Below, piece after piece: positions 1 to 24,689 of a DNA stretch of 24,689 nucleotides; position 1 is the stretch's first letter; each line of letters starts with the position of its first letter. Source of the DNA: a virus; UHGV virus genome UHGV-1601690. One strand, written 5' to 3'. The notes under the pieces were generated by a model that was not told where the DNA came from, ran no database searches, and saw nothing but the letters and a program-made list of their open reading frames with translations. A program made the translations under genes and the position numbers.

Positions 1-220
1 TTATCTATGATGATCTGCTCCCATTCTTCGAATGCCCGGTCGCGGACGCCCTGGGGAACACTGTTAGTTTTGAAATCGACGACCGTCCGCCATTTTCCGT
101 CAGGACGGTACATGCGCAGAGCTTTACTTCCCCCTTCCCTGCGCACCTCAACGTTATGCTTATCAGCAAACTCTTGCAATGCTCGTAGCGTCCCATGCTT
201 TACTGTGTAGTATCGCTTCT

Positions 221-661
221 TCAAGTTTTCTCTCCAGCCTGTGCCAAGGCTTCAACTTCCAAATCGTAAGACTCAAACTCATAGTCCTGGTCGTCAACCT
301 CTTCAGGCACTGGCAGTAAATGCCAGGCTGAGTATATCTGGCCATTATCAAAACGCTCCTGGCTGTAGAGCGTCGCGGCTATGAGTGTTAGCGCCGGGCG
401 GTCATAACGGTAAAATTTGCGAACGTCACGGTCAACGAGACGACCGAAATTACCATAACCGCGCTCCAGTAATAATTTTTTAATTTCCGGCCAGTATGGG
501 CCATAGCTGCGGTACAGGCGGGGATTTTTCAGTAATCGCCCGCGTAGCCCTGACAGGAAGAAATCAACGTATTCGTCTTCTGTCTTTCCTAACAACGCTG
601 TACGGAGTACCGCCTCAAGATATGTTTTATTCGGTTTTATTGTATCAGATAGTGTGGCCAT
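221..661 (-). CDS. Hypothetical 146-aa protein immediately downstream of darB; by position this is the P1 ulx slot (Dar accessory protein)
   Basis: ORF in the six-frame track with ATG at 659-661; sits 33 nt downstream of the darB stop on the same strand, with a CGCCCGG/CCGGGCG stem-loop (671-688) in the spacer. Assignment is by synteny only. Confidence 0.55.
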   Translation of the reverse strand: MATLSDTIKPNKTYLEAVLRTALLGKTEDEYVDFFLSGLRGRLLKNPRLYRSYGPYWPEIKKLLLERGYGNFGRLVDRDVRKFYRYDRPALTLIAATLYSQERFDNGQIYSAWHLLPVPEEVDDQDYEFESYDLEVEALAQAGEKT

Positions 662-3600: not shown

Positions 3601-6600
3601 CCAGCTGCTGCACCGCATCGGCGTACTCCGGCAGGAAACGATAGGTGATCCGGCGATAGTACAGGTCCATGTCAGTACATACGCGGTCCATATCCCTGAT
3701 TATTGAGAAGATCGGACGGGCTTTCTCGTGCTCAATCACGCCGTCTTCATTGACCGAGGTCGTTACGCCATTGTTGGCTTTGGCCGCCGCTTCCGCCTGC
3801 TGACGCAATTCTTCATACGCCGCCAGTTGTTCTTCAGTAAGTGGTGCATCCTGCTGGTGTTCGTCCAGCTCCGGGATCTCCACGGTATCCTTAACGTCTT
3901 CCGCCGTTTTAAGCGTTACCCAGCGATGGAATATACCGCGCAGCGCATCAAGGTTTTCAAAGCCCACCAGCGCCATTTTTTCTTCAACTTCACCGCTAAT
4001 TTTCTGTACCGTTTCCAGCCTGGTCTTGCCGAAGAATTTAACGAAGTCATCAGGACCGTAGATCCCCATGTTCTGCCAGTATTCCTTCGGCAGAACATGA
4101 GAAAGCATGTTGTATGCATCGATCGGGGTGTTAACGACTGGCGTTGCAGTCAGGAGAACCGGCCCGCGCCCACCATTCTTTTTCATCAGGTACGCGTTTT
4201 TAATTGCCATATCTCGCGCCGATTGCGCCACCGCGCTGGTGGGCAGATAGGCCAGTTGTGACGCTTCGCGACCATTTTTATAGCTATTGCGGTAGTTGTG
4301 ACCTTCGTCAGCGATCACACTATCGAAGCCCATATCCTCAAAGTACGGATACTTCTCTGCTTTTTCGGTGCCGGTATCTGAATACTCCGACAATACCCGG
4401 CGACGCGCGGCCTCTTTGCGGTGGGAGTCGGAGTCCATTGCGCTGGCTACGCGTCCAGCGGCAACGAAGTCATAAAGCATATCCTGTGCATGCTCATCTA
4501 CGGTGTCATCACGTAGCGGAATGCGGGCGTATTGTTCTTTGGTAAACACGACTGCACGGTAATTTGAGTGCGGGATCGCGTTCATCCGCGCCGTGATAGT
4601 GGCTTCATCTGCCAGCTTAAGAGCATCGCGCATAACTGGAGTGCCATCAGTACCAAGAACAGGTTTACCGTTCTCATCGAGCACCTGCACCTGGCGAATC
4701 TGATCGCCATCCATCAGCACATCAAGACCGACGAACAGGTAGTTACTGAATGCCTCTTCACTCAGGAATTCTTTTGCTTCGTAATACCAGTTTTCCAGCA
4801 CTGATTTAGGCACTACATACGCAGTACGGGTGGAGCGACCGTTCTCATAGTTGAACGCCTCAAGCGCCAGCGCGGTCGTGGTTTTACCCAGCCCGGTGCC
4901 GAAGCCCAGGATGCCGCGCCCATCTTCGGACAGTCGGCGCACCTCGCTATTCTGGTAATCAAATGGCTGGCGCTTACCGCTTAATCCCTTCAACCCAAGC
5001 GGATCGCCAGAGTGTTCATACGGGATATTGCTATTGAACACATCGTTGTATTTGGCAACCAGCTCATCGTAGCGATCGTGCGTCTTGATCCACTTATTGA
5101 ACTGGTCCTCAAGCAGTGCCATCTGCTCGCGGTAGCCGTTCGCCGTCGCGCTATCTTTGCCACCGATACGCGCACCATTGAGATACTTTTCCAGCTGTGC
5201 CGGGAACCCGGTCGCGTTTTCACCTGATTTACGGTCCCACTCGTAGCGAATCTCACCTGTTTCTTTATCCTTGCGCTGGACGACACCGTATCGGTGCCCG
5301 ACGAACAGACCATCACCACCGTGATAGGTGTCAGAAACCATTTCGTCGCCTTCCAGCTGCACTGACTGCACATAGCGCAGATCCGGATAGCCGTTTTCCT
5401 GCAAAAATTCCAGAATGACGGAACGGTCGAACCAACGGCTATTGAGCTTAAACCGGATATTCTCTGCTGGCGTCTTGATGCGCTTCTCTTCGATAGCTGC
5501 CAGCTGATTAAGGACGTTGTTCTTTACTGGACCGTCGGGGAGTGTGGCGAGGAATTCCTGTTTTGGAGCCACTATCTCGTTAATGTCGCCGCTGGTGGCG
5601 CGGGCGAACGGAACAATCCCGCCATACGGTGAAACCGCAATACCAGGGGTGCTGGCCAATAAATTAAGCAACTCTTCATCACTGGCTGGCAGTTCGCCGG
5701 TAAACGCAAGGCGGAAATCATCGAGCTGGATTGGATCGCGGGTGAGATCGCTATAGAGATAACGCAGGGTGTCCTGATAGCTGGTGGAGTCATAACTTGC
5801 GCTGGAATCATGCGTAACCAGCTTCCCTGTCAGCTCGTCAGAAATAGTGCCATCCAGCTTAATTGCACCACGGAAAGCAAACCAGGCGCGCGCACCGCTC
5901 CCCGACAATTTCGCTATCGGACCGCGACCGGGGTTACCAAAACGGTCAATCTCTGCCTGCAAACGGGATACCAGAGAAAGGCGCTGCTGTTCGATTTGTT
6001 CAGCACTATGCCCGGCGGCCTTCATGTCCTGATATTCAATTAACATCCGGCCAATCATCGCCCCGCGATACAAGCGTTCACGGTATTTTTCAGGCTGGCT
6101 GTTAATCCAGTCCACCAGCTGCACCATATCGTCGCTGATTGATGTGGTGTACTTATCGCGGACATTTGCCATCTGGGTAAATGTCATGCCGAGACGGCCT
6201 TCTGTTGTAGTCAGGTTACGCTGAAGAGCCTCCCAGCTATCCGCGCCATAACTGGCAGCATCGATCTTAAGTTCCTTCCCGGCATCAGCTTCAATCCAGC
6301 GACCACCAGCATATTTTTGCCATACGCCATTAATCAGGCGCATTTCCCCTTCACCAACAACGTCTGCGGTCGGTGACGGTTCAGCCATATCGAGCAAAGA
6401 CCAGTCGATACGGCTTTCGAAACGATGAATCAGCTTCGCTTTAAGAGCCTGGTTATCAATCTGACCGTCGGCACGAACCTCAATACGCCCCTGGAAGCCC
6501 TTTTCCTGGGTGCCATGAACAAACCGGCGGCCGTCCTTTTCAAACCACTTGCCAGAAATAAACGTTGGCCAAAGCACATTTGCCGATTCGAGAGTGCTTT

Positions 6601-7462
6601 CATCCACCAGGGGGATTTTCTCAGCCATCTCTGCCGGATGTTTGCGCATCAGCACCACATCAACAACTGTACTGGTCCCGTTTGCGTCAAAAGTACCGGT
6701 AGGCAAGCGGTGGGCACCAAGAAATTCAGCTTTCCGTGATAGGCGCAGGCGTAACCGCTTCATGTTTGAACCTGAAACAATGGACGGCGGCACAATCACG
6801 CACATGAATCCGCCTGGCTTTATCTTGTCCAGCATGCGGAGCATGAAGTAAGAACCCATGTCCGTTTCTTCTGCGTAAGGCTTATCGATGTTGCGTGTGT
6901 TATCACGACCACCGAACGGAACGTTACCCACAACATGGTCGAATGAATCGTTAGGCGTGCTTACAGCCAGTTGTTCGAACGGAGAAATCTGTACGCTGTC
7001 TTCCGGGTGCAACAGCTGGTTTATACGACCGGAAACACTGCTGATCTCAGTCGCGGTCATCACCGTACCAACCGGTTTTGTCTCATTAAAAACGCCGGTT
7101 CCCGCCGATGGTTCCAGAGTGTTACCTACGTCCGCGCCGTAGAGCTTCATGATCTCCCAGACACCTTCAGCGATCGGCTTTGGTGTGTAATATTCGGAGA
7201 CGGACCCGCCAATGCCGCCTTCACCGGTGTACCCAGCCAGGATCTGGCGCTGTTCATCTGTCAGTGTCGCGCCGTCCACCAGCGAATTAAGCAAATCTAT
7301 CGCCTTCTGATTCGCCTCACGGCGCAGTCGGTCATAGCTTTTGCCTTCCACCTTTTCCACGCCGTATTTAATCGGCGCTCGGTGAGATGTTATTGCCCTA
7401 ATGTATTTCAATATTTCGCTGACACTTGAACAGCGAAACACCCCCATATATAGCTTGTTCAT
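695..7462 (-). CDS. darB: DarB-type giant anti-restriction protein: N-terminal N6-adenine methyltransferase domain fused to an SF2 helicase
   Basis: Single 2255-aa ORF, the length I recall for P1 DarB. ATG at 7460-7462 preceded by AAGGA. Methyltransferase motif I EPSAGTG (about 7090-7120) and motif IV GNVPF (6914-6928). Helicase motif I GFGTGLGKTT (4877-4906), motif II DEGH (4298-4309), plus TATP and QRNGRGAR motifs further on. Confidence 0.9.
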   Translation of the reverse strand: MNKLYMGVFRCSSVSEILKYIRAITSHRAPIKYGVEKVEGKSYDRLRREANQKAIDLLNSLVDGATLTDEQRQILAGYTGEGGIGGSVSEYYTPKPIAEGVWEIMKLYGADVGNTLEPSAGTGVFNETKPVGTVMTATEISSVSGRINQLLHPEDSVQISPFEQLAVSTPNDSFDHVVGNVPFGGRDNTRNIDKPYAEETDMGSYFMLRMLDKIKPGGFMCVIVPPSIVSGSNMKRLRLRLSRKAEFLGAHRLPTGTFDANGTSTVVDVVLMRKHPAEMAEKIPLVDESTLESANVLWPTFISGKWFEKDGRRFVHGTQEKGFQGRIEVRADGQIDNQALKAKLIHRFESRIDWSLLDMAEPSPTADVVGEGEMRLINGVWQKYAGGRWIEADAGKELKIDAASYGADSWEALQRNLTTTEGRLGMTFTQMANVRDKYTTSISDDMVQLVDWINSQPEKYRERLYRGAMIGRMLIEYQDMKAAGHSAEQIEQQRLSLVSRLQAEIDRFGNPGRGPIAKLSGSGARAWFAFRGAIKLDGTISDELTGKLVTHDSSASYDSTSYQDTLRYLYSDLTRDPIQLDDFRLAFTGELPASDEELLNLLASTPGIAVSPYGGIVPFARATSGDINEIVAPKQEFLATLPDGPVKNNVLNQLAAIEEKRIKTPAENIRFKLNSRWFDRSVILEFLQENGYPDLRYVQSVQLEGDEMVSDTYHGGDGLFVGHRYGVVQRKDKETGEIRYEWDRKSGENATGFPAQLEKYLNGARIGGKDSATANGYREQMALLEDQFNKWIKTHDRYDELVAKYNDVFNSNIPYEHSGDPLGLKGLSGKRQPFDYQNSEVRRLSEDGRGILGFGTGLGKTTTALALEAFNYENGRSTRTAYVVPKSVLENWYYEAKEFLSEEAFSNYLFVGLDVLMDGDQIRQVQVLDENGKPVLGTDGTPVMRDALKLADEATITARMNAIPHSNYRAVVFTKEQYARIPLRDDTVDEHAQDMLYDFVAAGRVASAMDSDSHRKEAARRRVLSEYSDTGTEKAEKYPYFEDMGFDSVIADEGHNYRNSYKNGREASQLAYLPTSAVAQSARDMAIKNAYLMKKNGGRGPVLLTATPVVNTPIDAYNMLSHVLPKEYWQNMGIYGPDDFVKFFGKTRLETVQKISGEVEEKMALVGFENLDALRGIFHRWVTLKTAEDVKDTVEIPELDEHQQDAPLTEEQLAAYEELRQQAEAAAKANNGVTTSVNEDGVIEHEKARPIFSIIRDMDRVCTDMDLYYRRITYRFLPEYADAVQQLADSLPKQATSEDDDSDDSITQQSQYSLIDKGEFIQLQVPEAFEQEVNKRLARFGIDEQTVTHPVTPKYAKLIATLKEFFPEGKQIIFTDEKTQHQKLKRIICNALNLEPSKVGILNAQTVAEAGKTGKKLKAVKPPKELPDEPTDAQIAKYNEQMALYDAYIAQQNEMSLGGLEKIAADFQEGRTPIIICNKKAEVGINLHRGTTDIHHLTLPWTPASIAQRNGRGARVGSNRASVRVHYYCGKGSFDEYRLKTLKRKAGWISDILRSDKSEMENADANDMIEMQMYTAKDDGERLAMMQVQMDKAKAVQRARQKEQAAIDLQNYIKAQHAAGEDVAALTAELERSKAELEKTTAEVAKFKQAVMAKAADNADWKARWGSVHHTDRTLLAQYRASLKSAIQRKANITQAISRYEKLLNRTQKAATDIKRLRPLVEDAINKGILDVDPDLVNHASEFLVIGDRSWRVGQYYDCAGDIVRIKSLDFDSQRADVEIIFTFKGTKSGNWDVKTLDKQVDVTPDEDAVMQKISGGVSIAGINDIISCDDFYRFQQRGMIKITDSYGVQTTESGYSIDFVGTYTDPLKHAVYPDRRDGALKSSIAKWVLGMMSEGNNRQIRSAETFLVELFGSNYGDVIASYGDTLSPEAIQEKIADAIAKMPEKTSQGATRNGDSELEVTNAIFGTHEFRASDYEITTAQFGTIGIYSNKAEIKQAMDAASARIAAEREANLNHAVAALTQSWVTAIREAATTGKITPAIADVVNDGSKFMDAYQMDAVQLPSAYGQLSYRMTYNLVSMFSDLAILGLVDLNEVTPELLSMRKNHVEILQRINTVLAGRTDEEKQADADRINLALGNITEEEIAARNEKQEELSSIQGDATSIAQSLGLNYRVSTADLKMMYAPKFAAGEVFGLQEASGMKGVLFRAKDAIKAKFGARWLPAKAKNSDFPGNWWIIETKHNVADVLAVIQQYA

Positions 7463-7529: not shown

Positions 7530-9260
<1,731 letters not shown>

Positions 9261-10528
9261 ACGGCAAACATTCCCAATTCACAGAGTCCGACCTAAACCA
9301 CATGAAGCGGCTTAGGAATTACAGACTCTCCAAGGGCTAACACTGCCAGCCCGGCAGCTTTTATATTACGGGCCGCGTTAATATCACGATCATGCTCTGC
9401 GCCACATTCCGGGCAGTGCCATTTACGAATATTAAGAGGCATTTTTTGCATGGTGAAGCCGCAACTGCTGCAACGTTTGGAAGAAGGGAAATACTGGTCG
9501 ATAGCGACAATGCTACGTCCACCCCATTCTCCTTTGTACTGGAGTTGGCGTACAAGTTCGCTCCAGCCTGTGTCAGCTATTGCTTTAGACAGCTTCGGGT
9601 TACGGATCATGTTTTTCACTTTAAGGGATTCAACGCAAACAACTTGGTTTTCGTTAATCAGTTTGCGGGACAACTTATGCAGGTTATCCATCCGACAATC
9701 GACTATTCTCGCGTGGAGGCGGGCAACCTTTAAACGTGCTTTGGCGCGGTTCTTTGAGCCTTTTTGTTTCTTGCTCAATCTGCGCTGTAACACTGCTAAT
9801 CGCTTCGCGTATTTAGCGTTGTGTCGAGGATTGCCAGTTTTAAAACCGGTATCGGTGACGAACAAATCTTTTAAACCAATATCAATGCCGACCGTGGAAA
9901 CGGTGATCGGCAGTGATACAGGCTCAAACTCGCAGAGACAGGATACAAAATATCGTCCGGCAGCATCCCTGGTGATAGTGACAGTGGATGGAGCAGACGG
10001 CAACGGACGGCTCCAGCGAACATCTAACGGCTCTTTGCCATGTACAGCTTGCCGTCACGGTATTTAAATGCGCTGGCAGTTAGTTCTGCGGCCTGTTTAT
10101 GCCGCTTGCTCTTAAAAACTGGGTATGCAGCACGCCCGGCGAAAAAGTTAGCAAAAGCCGTTTGTTGGTGGCGCAGAGACTGCTGGAGGGGGACGCAGGA
10201 AACGTCATTCAGCCAGGCGAATTCTGGTTCTTTTTTCAGTGCCGTTAATTTGGCGCTGGCTTGTGCATAGCCGACCCTCTCATGGCGTGCGTAGTACGCA
10301 TCGGTGCGCCAGCGAAGGAGGCTGTTATAGACAAAACGCACACACCCAAAAGTCCGGGCTAATAGCTCGGTTTGTTCGGGAGTTGGATAGAATCGATATT
10401 TATAGGCACGCTTCATGTTCTATATAATACATTGAAACTAATGAGTATATAAATGAATACACGGACGAAAATGTTATCAAAGCCAATATACCAACAGACA
10501 TTAGGTAAGGTAGCTGGAGGGCAATATA
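9261..10528 (-). mobile_element. tnpB-only IS200/IS605-family insertion between prt and pro (ends not determined; coordinates are the surrounding intergenic limits)
   Basis: No Y1 tnpA-sized ORF on either side. Only 32 nt separate the convergent prt and tnpB stops, so the right end must abut or overlap the prt 3' end. Confidence 0.5.
9293..10416 (-). pseudogene. tnpB: tnpB (IS200/IS605-family OrfB, RNA-guided nuclease family), split by a frameshift
   Basis: N-terminal fragment 10024-10416 (MKRAYKYRFYPTPEQTELL...) and C-terminal fragment 9293-10003 (RuvC-like region and CxxC...CxxC zinc finger, KRCSSCG...HCPECG) lie in different frames. The C-terminal frame is open upstream and reads PLDVRWSRPLPSAPSTVT, continuous with the N-terminal fragment if one base is restored near 10027-10033. 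Confidence 0.85.
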
Positions 10529-11595: not shown

Positions 11596-11847
11596 TCACC
11601 TTCGTCTGCGTGCCATATATTTGCGCACCGCGCGGCGTGGACAATCTGAAGCGGTTTCTTTCTGCTGCATCAATCTCGCGGCCATGCTCAAAAATGTCAG
11701 GCACAGCCGAAGCCCAGCATACAATAGCGGTTCCAGTGGCCACGTTTCATTAAGCACATATACCGCCATGAAAATCGAGTCGAAAACTATCGCTGCCAGC
11801 GATAACTTCATTGTCGAAAGTCTGCGGAGCTGCCGGAGTTTATTCAT
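11596..11847 (-). CDS. Small two-TMD membrane protein with a basic C-terminus, holin/pinholin-like, overlapping the lyz stop
   Basis: 83-aa ORF; ATG at 11845-11847 overlaps the lyz 3' end by 8 nt. Hydrophobic segments LSLAAIVFDSIFMAVYVL and PLLYAGLRLCLTFLSMAA, then RRAVRKYMARRRR. Confidence 0.4.
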   Translation of the reverse strand: MNKLRQLRRLSTMKLSLAAIVFDSIFMAVYVLNETWPLEPLLYAGLRLCLTFLSMAARLMQQKETASDCPRRAVRKYMARRRR

Positions 11848-12397
11848 TGACCAGTCCCGTCAGGCAAAGCAGGCGTTCTTTTTCACGGCGAATCTTTAAA
11901 CCTCGCAGGGGCACGCCGTTACTGTTCACAAAATCAGGGAGATGGTTACACATATTCACCCATTCCCCTTTCTGCGCCCACTTGTGGATGGACGTTTCGA
12001 CTCGCATGCCTCGCGCTTTGCTGTAGTAGGTCCGTAAGCTATTGCATCCCATATTGAATGCCGCGCTTGTCATTGCACTGAAGGCATTATCGGGCATGTC
12101 TTTGCCCCGGAAGTGCTGATTAATACAGCGTTCAGCGATCAGGATATTCTTTTCCCAATCAGCGGCGATTTGCTGGTCGGTTTTTCGCACACCCGGCGTT
12201 ACCCCGTGTGTATTACCGATCCCGTCAGTCCATACCCCCGCCGGGCACATGTATGGATCACGTCGGCAACCTTCAGCGTTTCCGATAAGCTCAAGCCCCG
12301 CCTGGTTGGTTCGCACATTGCCATTACCCATCACGATGGTAATCATCACCGCGATAGCGCAAATTGCACCGCCTCCTGCGGCTGTTTTTCCCTTCAT
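11840..12397 (-). CDS. lyz: SAR (signal-arrest-release) endolysin, T4-lysozyme-like muramidase
   Basis: N-terminus MKGKTAAGGGAICAIAVMITIVMGNG is a Gly/Ala-rich SAR domain and matches my recollection of P1 Lyz. Catalytic region ELIGNAEGCRRDPYMCPAGVWTDGIGNTHG. Internal ATG at 12395-12397 gives 185 aa; the longer 218-aa track ORF is an upstream extension. Confidence 0.9.
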   Translation of the reverse strand: MKGKTAAGGGAICAIAVMITIVMGNGNVRTNQAGLELIGNAEGCRRDPYMCPAGVWTDGIGNTHGVTPGVRKTDQQIAADWEKNILIAERCINQHFRGKDMPDNAFSAMTSAAFNMGCNSLRTYYSKARGMRVETSIHKWAQKGEWVNMCNHLPDFVNSNGVPLRGLKIRREKERLLCLTGLVNE

Positions 12398-12530
12398 AAA
12401 GACCTCATAAGCGAATTTTTTACGCTCCAGGACAAACACCCATTCACAGCCATTACCGACTGACTCGATCCCTTTAGAAGGCACAGGATAATGCAAATCA
12501 CTTGTTAGCTACGTTTCAAAGATATACATT

Positions 12531-12547
12531 ATTGCTCTAATTAATTT
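12531..12547 (+). promoter_or_regulatory. Candidate P1 C1-repressor operator 20 nt upstream of ssb
   Basis: ATTGCTCTAATTAATTT matches the remembered C1 operator consensus ATTGCTCTAATAAATTT at 16 of 17 positions. It overlaps the expected ssb promoter. Confidence 0.45.
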
Positions 12548-12566
12548 ATTTTATTAGGTAAGATAA

Positions 12567-13055
12567 GTGGCACAACGCGGTGTAAACAAAGTCATCCTGA
12601 TTGGTACCCTGGGGCAAGACCCGGAGATCAGGTATATACCAAATGGCGGAGCGGTCGGAAGACTCAGCATCGCAACGAATGAATCATGGCGCGACAAGCA
12701 AACGGGCCAACAGAAAGAGCAAACAGAATGGCATAAAGTCGTTTTGTTCGGAAAACTTGCTGAAATTGCGAGTGAGTATTTACGAAAAGGTTCTCAGGTC
12801 TACATCGAAGGGAAACTTAAAACCCGTAAGTGGACAGATGAGGCCGGTGTAGAACGCTACACGACGGAAATTATCGTCAGCCAGGGCGGCACCATGCAAA
12901 TGATCGGCGCTCGCCGTGACGATTCACAGTCCACAAATGGCTGGGGGCAATCAAACCAACCTCAAAACCACCAGCAATACAGTGGCGGCGGTAAACCTCA
13001 GAGCAACGCCAATAACGAACCTCCAATGGACTTTGAAGACGATATTCCATTTTGA
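12567..13055 (+). CDS. ssb: Single-stranded DNA-binding protein
   Basis: 162 aa, GTG start. OB-fold N-terminus [20 protein letters not shown]...[14 protein letters not shown], Gly/Gln-rich linker, acidic tail ending DDIPF as in E. coli SSB. Confidence 0.93.
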
Positions 13056-13188: not shown

Positions 13189-13303
13189 GAAGAGGCAATT
13201 TTATTGCCTCTTCAAAGGTGGCATGAGGGTGCCACCTATATGCGGGCAGTGACATCACTCCCTTCCCGCATATTCTTACCTACCAAAATTAGAATTGGTA
13301 GGT
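13189..13303. repeat. Cluster of four perfect inverted repeats in the porin 3' region
   Basis: GAAGAGGCAAT-TTT-ATTGCCTCTTC (13189-13213); GGTGGCA...TGCCACC (13217-13236); ATATGCGGG...CCCGCATAT (13238-13273); ACCTACCAA...TTGGTAGGT (13278-13303, spanning the porin stop). Confidence 0.6.
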
Positions 13304-14436
13304 CATACCAACAGCAACGATGTTGTCGGTTGCAACCTCAGATGCTTTGGTAAATTCACTTTCATCAATCAGGTTGATCTTGTAGTCAACGAAAGCGGAC
13401 ATATTTTTGTTGAAGTAATAAGTCGCGCCTACGTCGATGTATTCAACTAGATCCTGGTTACCGAACGCACCAATATTTTCACCGCGAGAGTGCAGGTAAG
13501 CGATGGACGGACGCAGGCCGAAATCAAACTGGTATTGAGCAACAGCTTCAAAGTTTTTCGCTTTGTTTGCGATAAAGTCATCACCGAAGACTGTCATATT
13601 CTGAGTTTCAGAATAAGTTGCAGCCAGGTAAATGTTGTTTGCGTCATATTTCAGACCAGTAGCCCATACTTCAGCTGTTTTACCAGAAGCATTCAGAGAG
13701 CTTGCATTAGCATAGGATACCTGTCCATCAGTACGGTCAGATTTTGCATAAGTTGCGCCAATGCCAAATCCTTCATAATCATAAGTAGCTGACAGACCGA
13801 AGCCATCACCATTAGATTCAACTACGTCGCGGCCTTTCCAGTTGTTCACTTTTGCAGCACTATCATTTTTACCCTGATACTGCAAAGCAAAGTTCAGACC
13901 ATCAACCAAGCCGAAGAAATCATTGTTACGATAGGTCGCGACGCCAGTAGCACGCTGGGTCATAAATACATCAGTCTGAGTCCAGGTATCTCCACCAAAC
14001 TCCGGCAGCACGTCAGTCCAAGCGCCAACATCATACGCTACACCGTAGTTGCGACCATAGTCGAGCGAACCATAATCGCCAAAGCGAAGCCCTGCAAACG
14101 CAAGACGAGTTTTGTCTTTATCAGAACCTTCAGTTTCAGTACGGTTACCTTTAAATTCGTACTCCCACTGACCAAAACCGGTTAACTGGTCATTAATCTG
14201 AGTTTCACCTTTGAAACCAAGACGCATGTAGGTCTTGTCGCCATCTTTAAACCCATACGAGCATAAGTTTTATCCCCGTCATCACTAGCTGAAGAAGAGA
14301 AGTAATGCTCTGCATTAACTTTGCCGTACAGATCCAGTTTGTTACCGTCTTTGTTATAGATTTCTGCCGCTTGTGCAGACATTGCCATCAGGACTGATGC
14401 TGCAACCGCAGAAAGTGCCACTGTGATTTTTTTCAT
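13289..14436 (-). pseudogene. OmpC/OmpF/NmpC-family general porin (phage-borne cargo), interrupted by a frameshift
   Basis: Signal peptide plus mature N-terminus ([40 protein letters not shown]...) in ORF 14182-14436; remainder of the barrel to the C-terminal ...VGMTYQF in ORF 13289-14227, in a different frame. Confidence 0.85.
14210..14280. repeat. Diverged 35-nt direct repeat at the porin frameshift
   Basis: Minus-strand copy A gacggggataaaacttatgctcgtatgggtttaaag ([12 protein letters not shown]) is followed directly by copy B gatggcgacaagacctacatgcgtcttggtttcaaa ([12 protein letters not shown]). The copies differ mainly at third codon positions, and the 35-nt offset shifts the frame. Confidence 0.7.
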
Positions 14437-22112: not shown

Positions 22113-22181
22113 AAGTTCCCTCCTACGTTGTCAGGAGGTAATGGTATGCAAAGTAACTTCTCAACCGGTCATGTTGCTTGA

Positions 22182-22213
22182 CATCCTCCACGTCCTTTAG
22201 AGCGTGGAGGATG
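22182..22213. repeat. Perfect 11-bp-stem hairpin adjacent to the start of the intron-like region
   Basis: CATCCTCCACG - TCCTTTAGAG - CGTGGAGGATG; ends at 22213, and GTGCG begins at 22215. Confidence 0.75.
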
Positions 22214-22214
22214 T

Positions 22215-23060
22215 GTGCGCCCAGCATGGGCGCGATCTTGGAGGTGAAAGCCCTCCCGCGAGCTGACCACAGCGAGCGAAATGAAGTGCAACTGCGTGAG
22301 GGCGACCGGGCGTGGGGAGGAAGCACGGAATGAACCCGTGAGCCGATGAACGAGAATCGGATATGAGGCGCGATGGAGCAAGGCGAGCAGGCACATCACT
22401 GCGAAGCTTTCGTGGTCAAGTCGAAGTCGCGCAGATCCGACGGTTGTGCGGGGAAGGATCGCGTTCTTACCTGGGGAGTTCTCGCCTCATGCCTGAAAGG
22501 GCAACGTCGTAAGACGGAGCGAGAAGTCAGCAGAGGCCGTTGTAGTCAGGACTCCGACGAAGGGCCGAACGAGAAGGAAAGCCAGAAGATATGACTCTTG
22601 ACAGGACATTGCGTCAGAAGCCGGGGAAGCCCGGTACGGACCCGCATGCCGGGTGGTGTGGCAGGGGCGCAGCCCTTGTGCTCCCCCCTATGCCGATCAA
22701 GCAGAACATTGTGCTGGGCCTCTGACGCAGCTCCTTGATGGTCTTGGCATCGTGCTTAAGTGGATTGGTGTCGTCCCTGATAGGATCATGGAGGCAGAAT
22801 GAAACTCAAAAATCCGGGATAGCACGCAAAACAGGCTGCACAAAAAGCGCAGGTTGCGTAGGAGTGAAATCCCGCTCCCAAAAAATGGTGCAGAAGTTGC
22901 GGCAGTGGTCATCCGACGCACTGGAAAATAACAAACCCGCCGTGACCAGAATCGGAGGCCTGAGGGAGTGACCGAAAAACCGGACAACCCAGGCAGCAAA
23001 TACCCGCTGGATGAGGCATGGTTCCGGCAGATAATACCGAAAACCGCCAGACACACTGGA
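22215..23060 (+). ncRNA. Candidate 5' fragment of a group II intron (domains I-III and start of IV), truncated
   Basis: Starts GTGCGCCCAGCATGGGCGCG (compare the remembered Ll.LtrB 5' end GUGCGCCCAGAUAGGG). About 850 nt that look GC-rich by eye, with stops in all frames and many short helices; ends abruptly where AT-rich DNA begins near 23060. No reverse-transcriptase ORF or domain V present. Confidence 0.4.
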
Positions 23061-23117
23061 TAATCAGTAGAAATAATCCATTAAAGTTATTATAATAATT
23101 GGTCACATTATTATATT

Positions 23118-23681
23118 ATGCTGAACAATAGAAATATGACTATTAATGAACTTAAAGACTGTATTCACTATGAAGTAATTGGTAGCGAGCGTCCTTTCTC
23201 TTGGCGAAAAGCAATTGTTCGCGCAATAAAACATAGAAGAGTTCGTTATTTATTTTGGTGGCGCATATCAAAATATCTTTTTGATAAAGGCGGATACAGG
23301 CGAAAGGTTGCAGGGAAAATAGAACGCTTCATTCTTGACAAATACAATGTAACCGTTCCCTTAACGGTAAATATAGGGAAAGGGTTTGACATATCTTATC
23401 TCAATGGCGTTGTTATCGCTCACAAAGTCACAATCGGTGAAAATTGTTCAATTAAGCCCGGAGTAACTATTGGACTTCGCGGGGAATTTAATGACATGGA
23501 TATTGTTATAGGAGATAATGTGACCATTGGTTGTAATGCCACCATTCTTGGTGGCAAAGTGCGTATAGGAAACAATGTCACAATAGGTGCTCATGCATTG
23601 GTATTGCATGATATTCCTGATGATTCAACATTCATCACTAAATTTCAGTCTGAAGTTATCTGCTCGTCCTCCCGCACATAA
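23118..23681 (+). CDS. Hexapeptide-repeat (left-handed beta-helix) acetyltransferase, probable polysaccharide O-acetyltransferase; AT-rich cargo
   Basis: 187-aa ORF with consecutive hexapeptide repeats ([24 protein letters not shown]...[35 protein letters not shown]). AT-rich by eye, preceded by an AT-rich promoter-like stretch containing TATAAT. Start may be the second ATG at 23136. The 3' end overlaps the tfa 3' end convergently. Confidence 0.8.
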
Positions 23682-24262
23682 CCCTGATTCATCAGCTCTG
23701 GCCATACGATATCCGGAGCTGTACTGGTATCAATTCGACTCACTAATACTCTGTATTTTCTCCAGGAGTCCAGTTGTGAATTTTCCTCGTTTGTTGCTAT
23801 TTCAAGATTAACTGCGTCCTGCAGAATTGCGATGTTATCTGTTGCCTCCTGGATCAACCTTGCCTTTTTCTCTTCCGCTTCCCGTATCCGAAACAGTTTT
23901 TCTGCTTCCTCATCCTTCACCCAGGATACGCCGTCCCACTTCTGATACTCCCCTGCTGGCGACAACCAGGTGACATTCTCTGGTAGCGGTCCGGGTTCAG
24001 AAATAAACAACGCGTCCCCCGATGCCACCTCATAGACCGTTTTACCACGATGGTCTTCAACAATATTCCACGATTCATTTTCACTGTTGAAAACTGCCAC
24101 AAAGCCAGTAGGAATTTCCGGTGGGGCGATATCTGTAGAATTAGCTGGCAGCCCTGTATGAGGTGGAATATATGCGTCATCTTCACCAATAAACTCATTA
24201 GTTCCGGCCAGCAGGTTATAAATTTTTACTGTACGTGATTGTTCACTCATTCTGAATGCCAT
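23645..24262 (-). CDS. Tail fibre assembly chaperone (Tfa / P1 U-like)
   Basis: 205-aa ORF with a Tfa-type C-terminal region (DIVWPEL...). Its ATG overlaps the tail-fibre stop (TAATG). The last few codons run into the AT-rich cassette. Confidence 0.85.
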
Positions 24263-24689
24263 TATGCAAGCCTCACAATATAATTAAATGCGATGTTTTT
24301 AACGGTGTTTTCCGCGTTACCAGCAGCATTAACGGTGATGGTATGTCCATGTGAACCAATCGCAACAGAGTGCGTATGAGCGCCAATACCAACTGTATGT
24401 GCATGCGCCCCTGCACTTGCAGCAGTGCCTGATACTGAGTGGGTGTGTGCACCAGAAGAAGGCACTGTTCCATTCCCCACGACCGTGCCACTTGATGAAC
24501 CATCAAGCCAGTCGAAATTCATACCTCCACTGTTTGGTCTCCTTAATGGAACGGTATGAGTATGTGCGCCAGCACTATTTGCAGTACCAGATACATTGTG
24601 GGTATGTGCACCTGTGTTATTCGTTGGTTTAGTACCGTAATCAAACGACGATGTGGTTTTCGTCCCCAAATCCGTACTGGATGCGCTGG
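24262..24689 (-). CDS. Tail fibre protein, C-terminal receptor-binding part (5' end beyond the window)
   Basis: Frame is open to the window edge. Repeated GAHTH(S/T)V(S/P) motifs ([21 protein letters not shown]...[21 protein letters not shown]) are typical of Mu S / P1 S / lambdoid side tail-fibre C-termini. Confidence 0.8.

Follow-up and report, generated by a model that had tools for sequence, protein, structure and literature searches.

The intergenic gap analyzed here separates two divergent genes in a 24,689-nt stretch of viral DNA (UHGV virus genome UHGV-1601690), which is referred to as the window. To the left, the endolysin gene lyz is encoded by the minus strand (11840-12397; the ORF was taken from the ATG that matches P1 lyz, in agreement with the P1 and P7 annotation), and to the right the gene of the phage single-stranded DNA-binding protein, ssb, is encoded by the plus strand (12567-13055; 162 aa, GTG start), with ~98% nucleotide identity to the ssb genes of P1 and P7. 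Within this gap, positions 12531-12547 of the plus strand read ATTGCTCTAATTAATTT, a 17-mer whose last base is located 20 nt before the G of the ssb start codon, i.e., with 19 nt in between. The ssb ribosome-binding site, TTATTAGGT, is found downstream of it (12551-12559, plus strand; positions 5703-5711 of the ssb-P1 record AF125376.2). On the other side of the 17-mer, the minus strand carries the late Lpa-dependent promoter of lyz, LPlyz (12485-12503), which consists of a AAGTGATTT box, a gap of 4 nt and TATCCT, is annotated in P1 and P7, and fits the P1 late-promoter set. When a rightward promoter of the Lpa type (a AAGTGACTT box, 4 nt and TANNNT) was searched for before ssb, none was found, and the leftward LPlyz was the only one.

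A 0.8-kb query around the site matched 19 phage records with 97-99% identity (P1, P7, SJ46, RCS47, JL22 and others), and with the entire window, matches of 98% identity to P7, JL22 and P1 covered 77-85% of the sequence. More than 1000 plasmid records were matched as well, the majority of them from E. coli and Salmonella; the best was 99.1% identical. Since both phages and plasmids were matched, the window is a segment of a P1/P7-type phage-plasmid. Its genes are, in this order, lxc (3′ end), darB, portal, pro, lydD, lyz, ssb, the porin gene, hxr, ddrB, ddrA, darA, hdf, lydB, lydA, lydC, cin and the tail-fibre genes. Compared with P1, P7 and JL22, the window has ~1.27 kb of additional sequence (~9246-10516), inserted exactly at the portal/pro junction, and ~18 nt of this junction are repeated on either side of the insertion. 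Its minus strand encodes a TnpB/InsQ protein of the IS200/IS605 type (RNA-guided endonuclease family). The gene is broken into two ORFs in the window (10024-10416 and 9293-10003), while an intact 376-aa TnpB gene with 7 bases more is found in related E. coli plasmids, and therefore the copy of the window is probably frameshifted. Downstream of ssb, the window has an nmpC/ompD-type porin gene (13289-14436, minus strand), as do P7 and JL22; the gene is absent from P1, which has isaA and IS1 instead. Relative to P7 and JL22, this porin gene carries a 35-nt insertion at ~14215-14249, which resembles a divergent duplicate of the 35 nt next to it and splits the gene into two ORFs of 312 aa and 84 aa, so that it is likely to be either a recombinant allele or a pseudogene. 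At its right end (22180-24689), where cin and the variable tail-fibre sequences are located, the window is collinear with neither P1 nor P7. The JL22 match extends to the last position of the window but is locally collinear only up to 22179; the best plasmid match, CP100027, aligns across the full window. This end corresponds to the host-range region that is known to be mosaic in P1-like elements.

The sequence-only reading had taken the 17-mer for an operator-like site of the P1 immunity repressor C1, 20 nt upstream of the ssb GTG, and had compared it with a 17-bp operator consensus. Both its coordinates and its sequence were borne out. When the 20 operators annotated in P1 (AF234172) were compared column by column, the most frequent bases gave ATTGCTCTAATAAATTT. 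Zhang et al. (2021, PMC8546580) cite exactly this string as the published consensus of the asymmetric 17-bp operator, and the consensus used in the sequence-only reading was hence the right one. As had been claimed, ATTGCTCTAATTAATTT matches it at 16 of 17 positions, and the sole deviation is a T for A at position 12, a base that is also present at this position in the P1 operators Oref, Orlf and Oppp. The invariant core of the operator is TGCTCTAAT, and an example of a core mutant would be the change of TGCTCTAAT to TGAGATAAT.

Comparison with the P1 operator list, one of the checks proposed along with the sequence-only reading, revealed that the site itself is annotated there. The 17-mer is 100% identical to Op21 in the P1 record AF125376.2 (5683-5699), to Ossb in the P1 genome AF234172/NC_005856 (21015-21031, a protein_bind feature) and to Op(ssb) in the P7 genome AF503408 (24773-24789), and in all of them it occupies the same context as in the window, i.e., the gap between lyz and ssb. 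The site thus shares both its sequence and its genomic context with a defined operator. In the GenBank features, Op21 is described as the binding site of the major P1 repressor, C1, and Ossb as a monovalent, C1-controlled operator; AF125376.2 places a "promoter of ssb-P1" directly upstream of Op21, and the ribosome-binding site and ssb-P1 downstream of it. The AF234172 annotation refers to GenBank M25412 for Op21. The first description of this operator is reportedly that of Citron, Velleman and Schuster in 1989 (J Biol Chem 264:3611), who are credited with C1 binding there. In a gap-free alignment of 111 nt (window 12470-12580), a single difference from P1 was found, at 12481, outside every annotated element, and the operator was identical in all four aligned sequences. 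Hence, the P1 regulatory region does not differ from that of the window in any annotated element: the 17-mer, the -35 and -10 hexamers of the ssb promoter P2ssb, the ribosome-binding site, the GTG start and the divergent LPlyz are the same. P7 shares with the window the operator and the gene order lyz, operator, ssb and nmpC-type porin gene, and two of its bases are different in the part of the ssb leader that follows the operator.

The gap-free alignment also served to transfer the promoter hexamers from the AF234172 annotation to the window. The sigma-70 promoter P2ssb (formerly Pr21) has its -35 hexamer, TTGTTA, at 12502-12507 (plus strand; AF234172 20986-20991) and, after a 17-nt spacer, its -10 hexamer, TACATT, at 12525-12530 (plus strand; AF234172 21009-21014, also read from the sequence). 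The operator begins at the base right after this -10 hexamer and therefore covers the region in which the start site is expected. Calculated from the P2ssb -10 hexamer rather than from a mapped start, it spans approximately positions -6 to +11. A second sigma-70 promoter on the plus strand, P1ssb, is marked "predicted" in AF234172 (12536-12564; -35 TCTAAT at 12536-12541, -10 TAAGAT at 12559-12564), and its -35 hexamer is contained in the operator. The overlap with a promoter that marks C1 operators was therefore found here, in that the site abuts the P2ssb -10 and overlaps the predicted P1ssb -35, with the promoter taken from annotation. The sequence-only reading had placed the site over the ssb promoter, which holds insofar as the expected start is covered, but the operator begins after the -10 and lies off the P2ssb hexamers. 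P2ssb (TTGTTA-17-TACATT) fits only 8 of 12 consensus positions and was for that reason absent from a generic sigma-70 scan, so that the promoter rests on its annotation and on its conservation in the Cronobacter phage JK004.

Conservation of the operator was analyzed at two distances. Among P1-like plasmids, a 201-nt query around the site recovered 500 records with at least 95.5% identity. In four of the most divergent ones (95.5-96.5% over the 201 nt), the operator was unchanged in three, and the fourth carried a single A13G change, which places at position 13 the same base that is found in the real operator Oref. JK004 is a distant P1-like phage whose Ssb is 63% identical and whose C1 homologue is 76% identical. 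Here, a site that is unannotated in the record, ATTGCTCTAATAATTAT (MZ188976 83412-83428), was found 22 nt before the ssb GTG, compared with 20 nt in the window. The two sites share the core ATTGCTCTAAT, the orientation and the spacing to a CTTGTT -35-like motif, which is 32 nt upstream of the operator in both, whereas their 3′ halves differ (AATTAT in JK004, TAATTT in the window). The remaining intergenic region is not conserved: the lyz-ssb gap of JK004 is mostly unalignable, and no identical non-coding block is longer than TTATTGCTCTAAT. Furthermore, a matrix scan at a threshold of at least 14 bits detected 21 operator-like sites in JK004 and 21 in P1, mostly before genes. The presence of these sites in JK004 together with a C1 homologue indicates that the repressor and its dispersed regulon have been conserved together.

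For a quantitative comparison, a log-odds matrix was built from the other 19 annotated P1 operators, with Ossb left out and with Omat re-oriented beforehand, as it is on the wrong strand in AF234172. With this leave-one-out matrix the site scored 26.3 bits, which is in the upper part of the span covered by real operators of P1 (6.5-28.4 bits), whereas the best matches in 300 dinucleotide-preserving shuffles had a mean of 12.4 and a maximum of 22.3 bits. A position-weight-matrix scan had been proposed as a check on the sequence-only reading, and in it the site surpassed every shuffle. When mismatches to the consensus were counted instead, 0.15 matches with at most three mismatches were expected in the window and two were found, one of them with a single mismatch. 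The site therefore matches the 17-bp consensus of the P1/P7 C1 operators both by identity (16/17) and by score. It could be argued that the 17-mer is an AT-rich word without any regulatory role that arose by chance in an AT-rich region; the lyz-ssb gap is indeed AT-rich, weak matches do occur randomly, and the second-best match of the window (16.5 bits) was reached by 24 of the 300 shuffles. The score of 26.3 bits is above all of them, however, the 17-mer is identical to an annotated operator, and JK004 keeps the core and the spacing even though the surrounding non-coding sequence has diverged. A chance match was rejected on the score and on the 0.15 expected matches, and its probability is practically nil.

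Alternatively, the 17-mer could have been kept as part of the ssb promoter, the 5′ leader or a translation signal, and not for C1 binding, because the expected start, a predicted -35 hexamer and the beginning of the ssb mRNA leader all overlap with it. This is extremely improbable, since the 17-bp word recurs ~20 times in P1 and ~20 times in JK004 before unrelated genes, and such a dispersed recurrence argues for a common DNA-binding protein rather than for ssb-specific signals; in addition, C1 is given as the protein that binds here in the annotation of both P1 and P7. The mycobacteriophages L5 and L1 offer a likeness, in that a single repressor, gp71, likewise has many dispersed asymmetric sites, the "stoperators" (PMC1934351), but protein and motif are unrelated to C1 and its operator, and the comparison is an analogy only. 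The same work also describes asymmetric multi-site repressors such as that of L5 as stopping elongation, which would be in line with a further reading, namely that C1 at the operator acts additionally or even mainly leftward, as a roadblock to transcripts from a promoter Plyz, keeping lyz silent in lysogens. In the P1 annotation, Plyz is a predicted sigma-70 promoter on the minus strand (-10 at ~12560-12565 and -35 at ~12581-12586, inside the start of ssb), and its transcripts would need to cross the operator. Plyz is only a predicted promoter, however. In addition, a late Lpa-dependent promoter, LPlyz, serves lyz from a position downstream of the operator, and C1 already controls it indirectly via Olpa. 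As no roadblock of this kind was found reported for P1 either, we consider such an action at the operator very unlikely.

The reading that we favour, with a probability of about 0.94, is that the site is the monovalent C1 operator Op21 (Ossb) of a P1/P7-type phage-plasmid, which would keep ssb silent in the lysogen. Op21/Ossb, the ssb promoter and the control of ssb by C1 are already known and were described between 1989 and 2004. Lehnherr et al. reportedly concluded in 1999 that the immunity proteins control ssb-P1 tightly, with full repression in lysogens; their study of its regulation is cited in PMC3208561. The P7 annotation of Op(ssb) states that it "controls expression of ssb". In the rt-qPCR analysis of Ronayne et al. 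(2016, PMC4713147), P1 ssb was strongly induced once C1.100 had been inactivated by heat, and in the same work ssb is grouped with dmt and kilA as C1 repressor-controlled genes. The proposal of the sequence-only reading that the phage SSB is under immunity control is supported by both the P7 annotation and these rt-qPCR data. The binding of C1 to Op21 and the induction of ssb, as known from the P1 literature and the GenBank annotation, would then carry over to the window.

In the lysogen, C1 would bind the asymmetric 17-bp site with the help of its co-repressor Lxc, and the bound repressor would sterically exclude the RNA polymerase from the start region of P2ssb, so that ssb would remain silent in the prophage-plasmid state. 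Start-site occlusion is the most likely mode of repression. Once C1 is inactivated by Coi, by Ant or, for c1ts alleles, by heat, P2ssb would be freed and ssb would be transcribed with the rest of the C1 regulon. For P1, operator-bound C1 is known to be stabilized by Lxc, and repression to be lifted by Coi or Ant (PMC8546580). The c1 gene was not found within the window. The phage records with a C1 match that share the ssb region encode C1 with 65-100% identity; of the phages matched around the site, only Ro157c2YLVW is missing among them. From these relatives a cognate c1 is assumed to be present in the same replicon as the window. The left end of the window (1-224, minus strand) carries the 3′ end of lxc (formerly bof), the gene of the C1 co-repressor, ~12 kb from the ssb operator.

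The 17-mer before ssb had also been held to be the only match of its kind in the window. It is the sole strong one, but both the consensus and the matrix scans detected a weaker operator-like site, ATTGCCCTAATGTATTT, at 7392-7408 (plus strand; three mismatches, 16.5 bits, a score that 8% of the shuffles reached). This site belongs to the 5′-terminal part of darB, precedes the start of the portal gene by 131 nt, and coincides exactly with the "hypothetical monovalent C1-controlled operator Op(pro)" of the P7 annotation; in P1 it is unannotated. ATTGCCCTAATGTATTT is identical in P1, P7 and JL22, which says little because the site is within darB. The darB-portal gap of JK004 contains a near-consensus operator, ATTGCTCTAATAAATCT (27.2 bits; MZ188976 77919-77935), and by analogy with it a real, weak operator at 7392-7408 is plausible. 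We hold it possible, although on the doubtful side, that 7392-7408 is a second functional C1 operator and, as a separate matter, that C1 bound to Ossb blocks leftward read-through to lyz. Two further observations concern the P1 genome itself. Between cre and c8, AF234172 carries an unannotated operator-like sequence on the plus strand (1485-1501), ATTGCTATAATTATTTG, with 18.7 bits. The number of P1 operators is quoted as 22 (PMC8546580), and ATTGCTATAATTATTTG and the equivalent of Op(pro) would bring the 20 annotated ones to this figure. In addition, Omat (AF234172 2628-2645) is annotated on the minus strand with 18 nt but reads like an operator on the plus strand (CATGCACTAATAAATAT), so that the GenBank entry is probably mistaken here.

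If the site at 7392-7408 were a true operator, C1 would directly damp the transcription of head-morphogenesis genes or of the anti-restriction gene darB, besides its action via Lpa. As for the operator before ssb, its presence would mean that the P1 immunity wiring of ssb is intact in this phage-plasmid, and its recognition helps to annotate the many P1-like plasmids of the Enterobacteriaceae.
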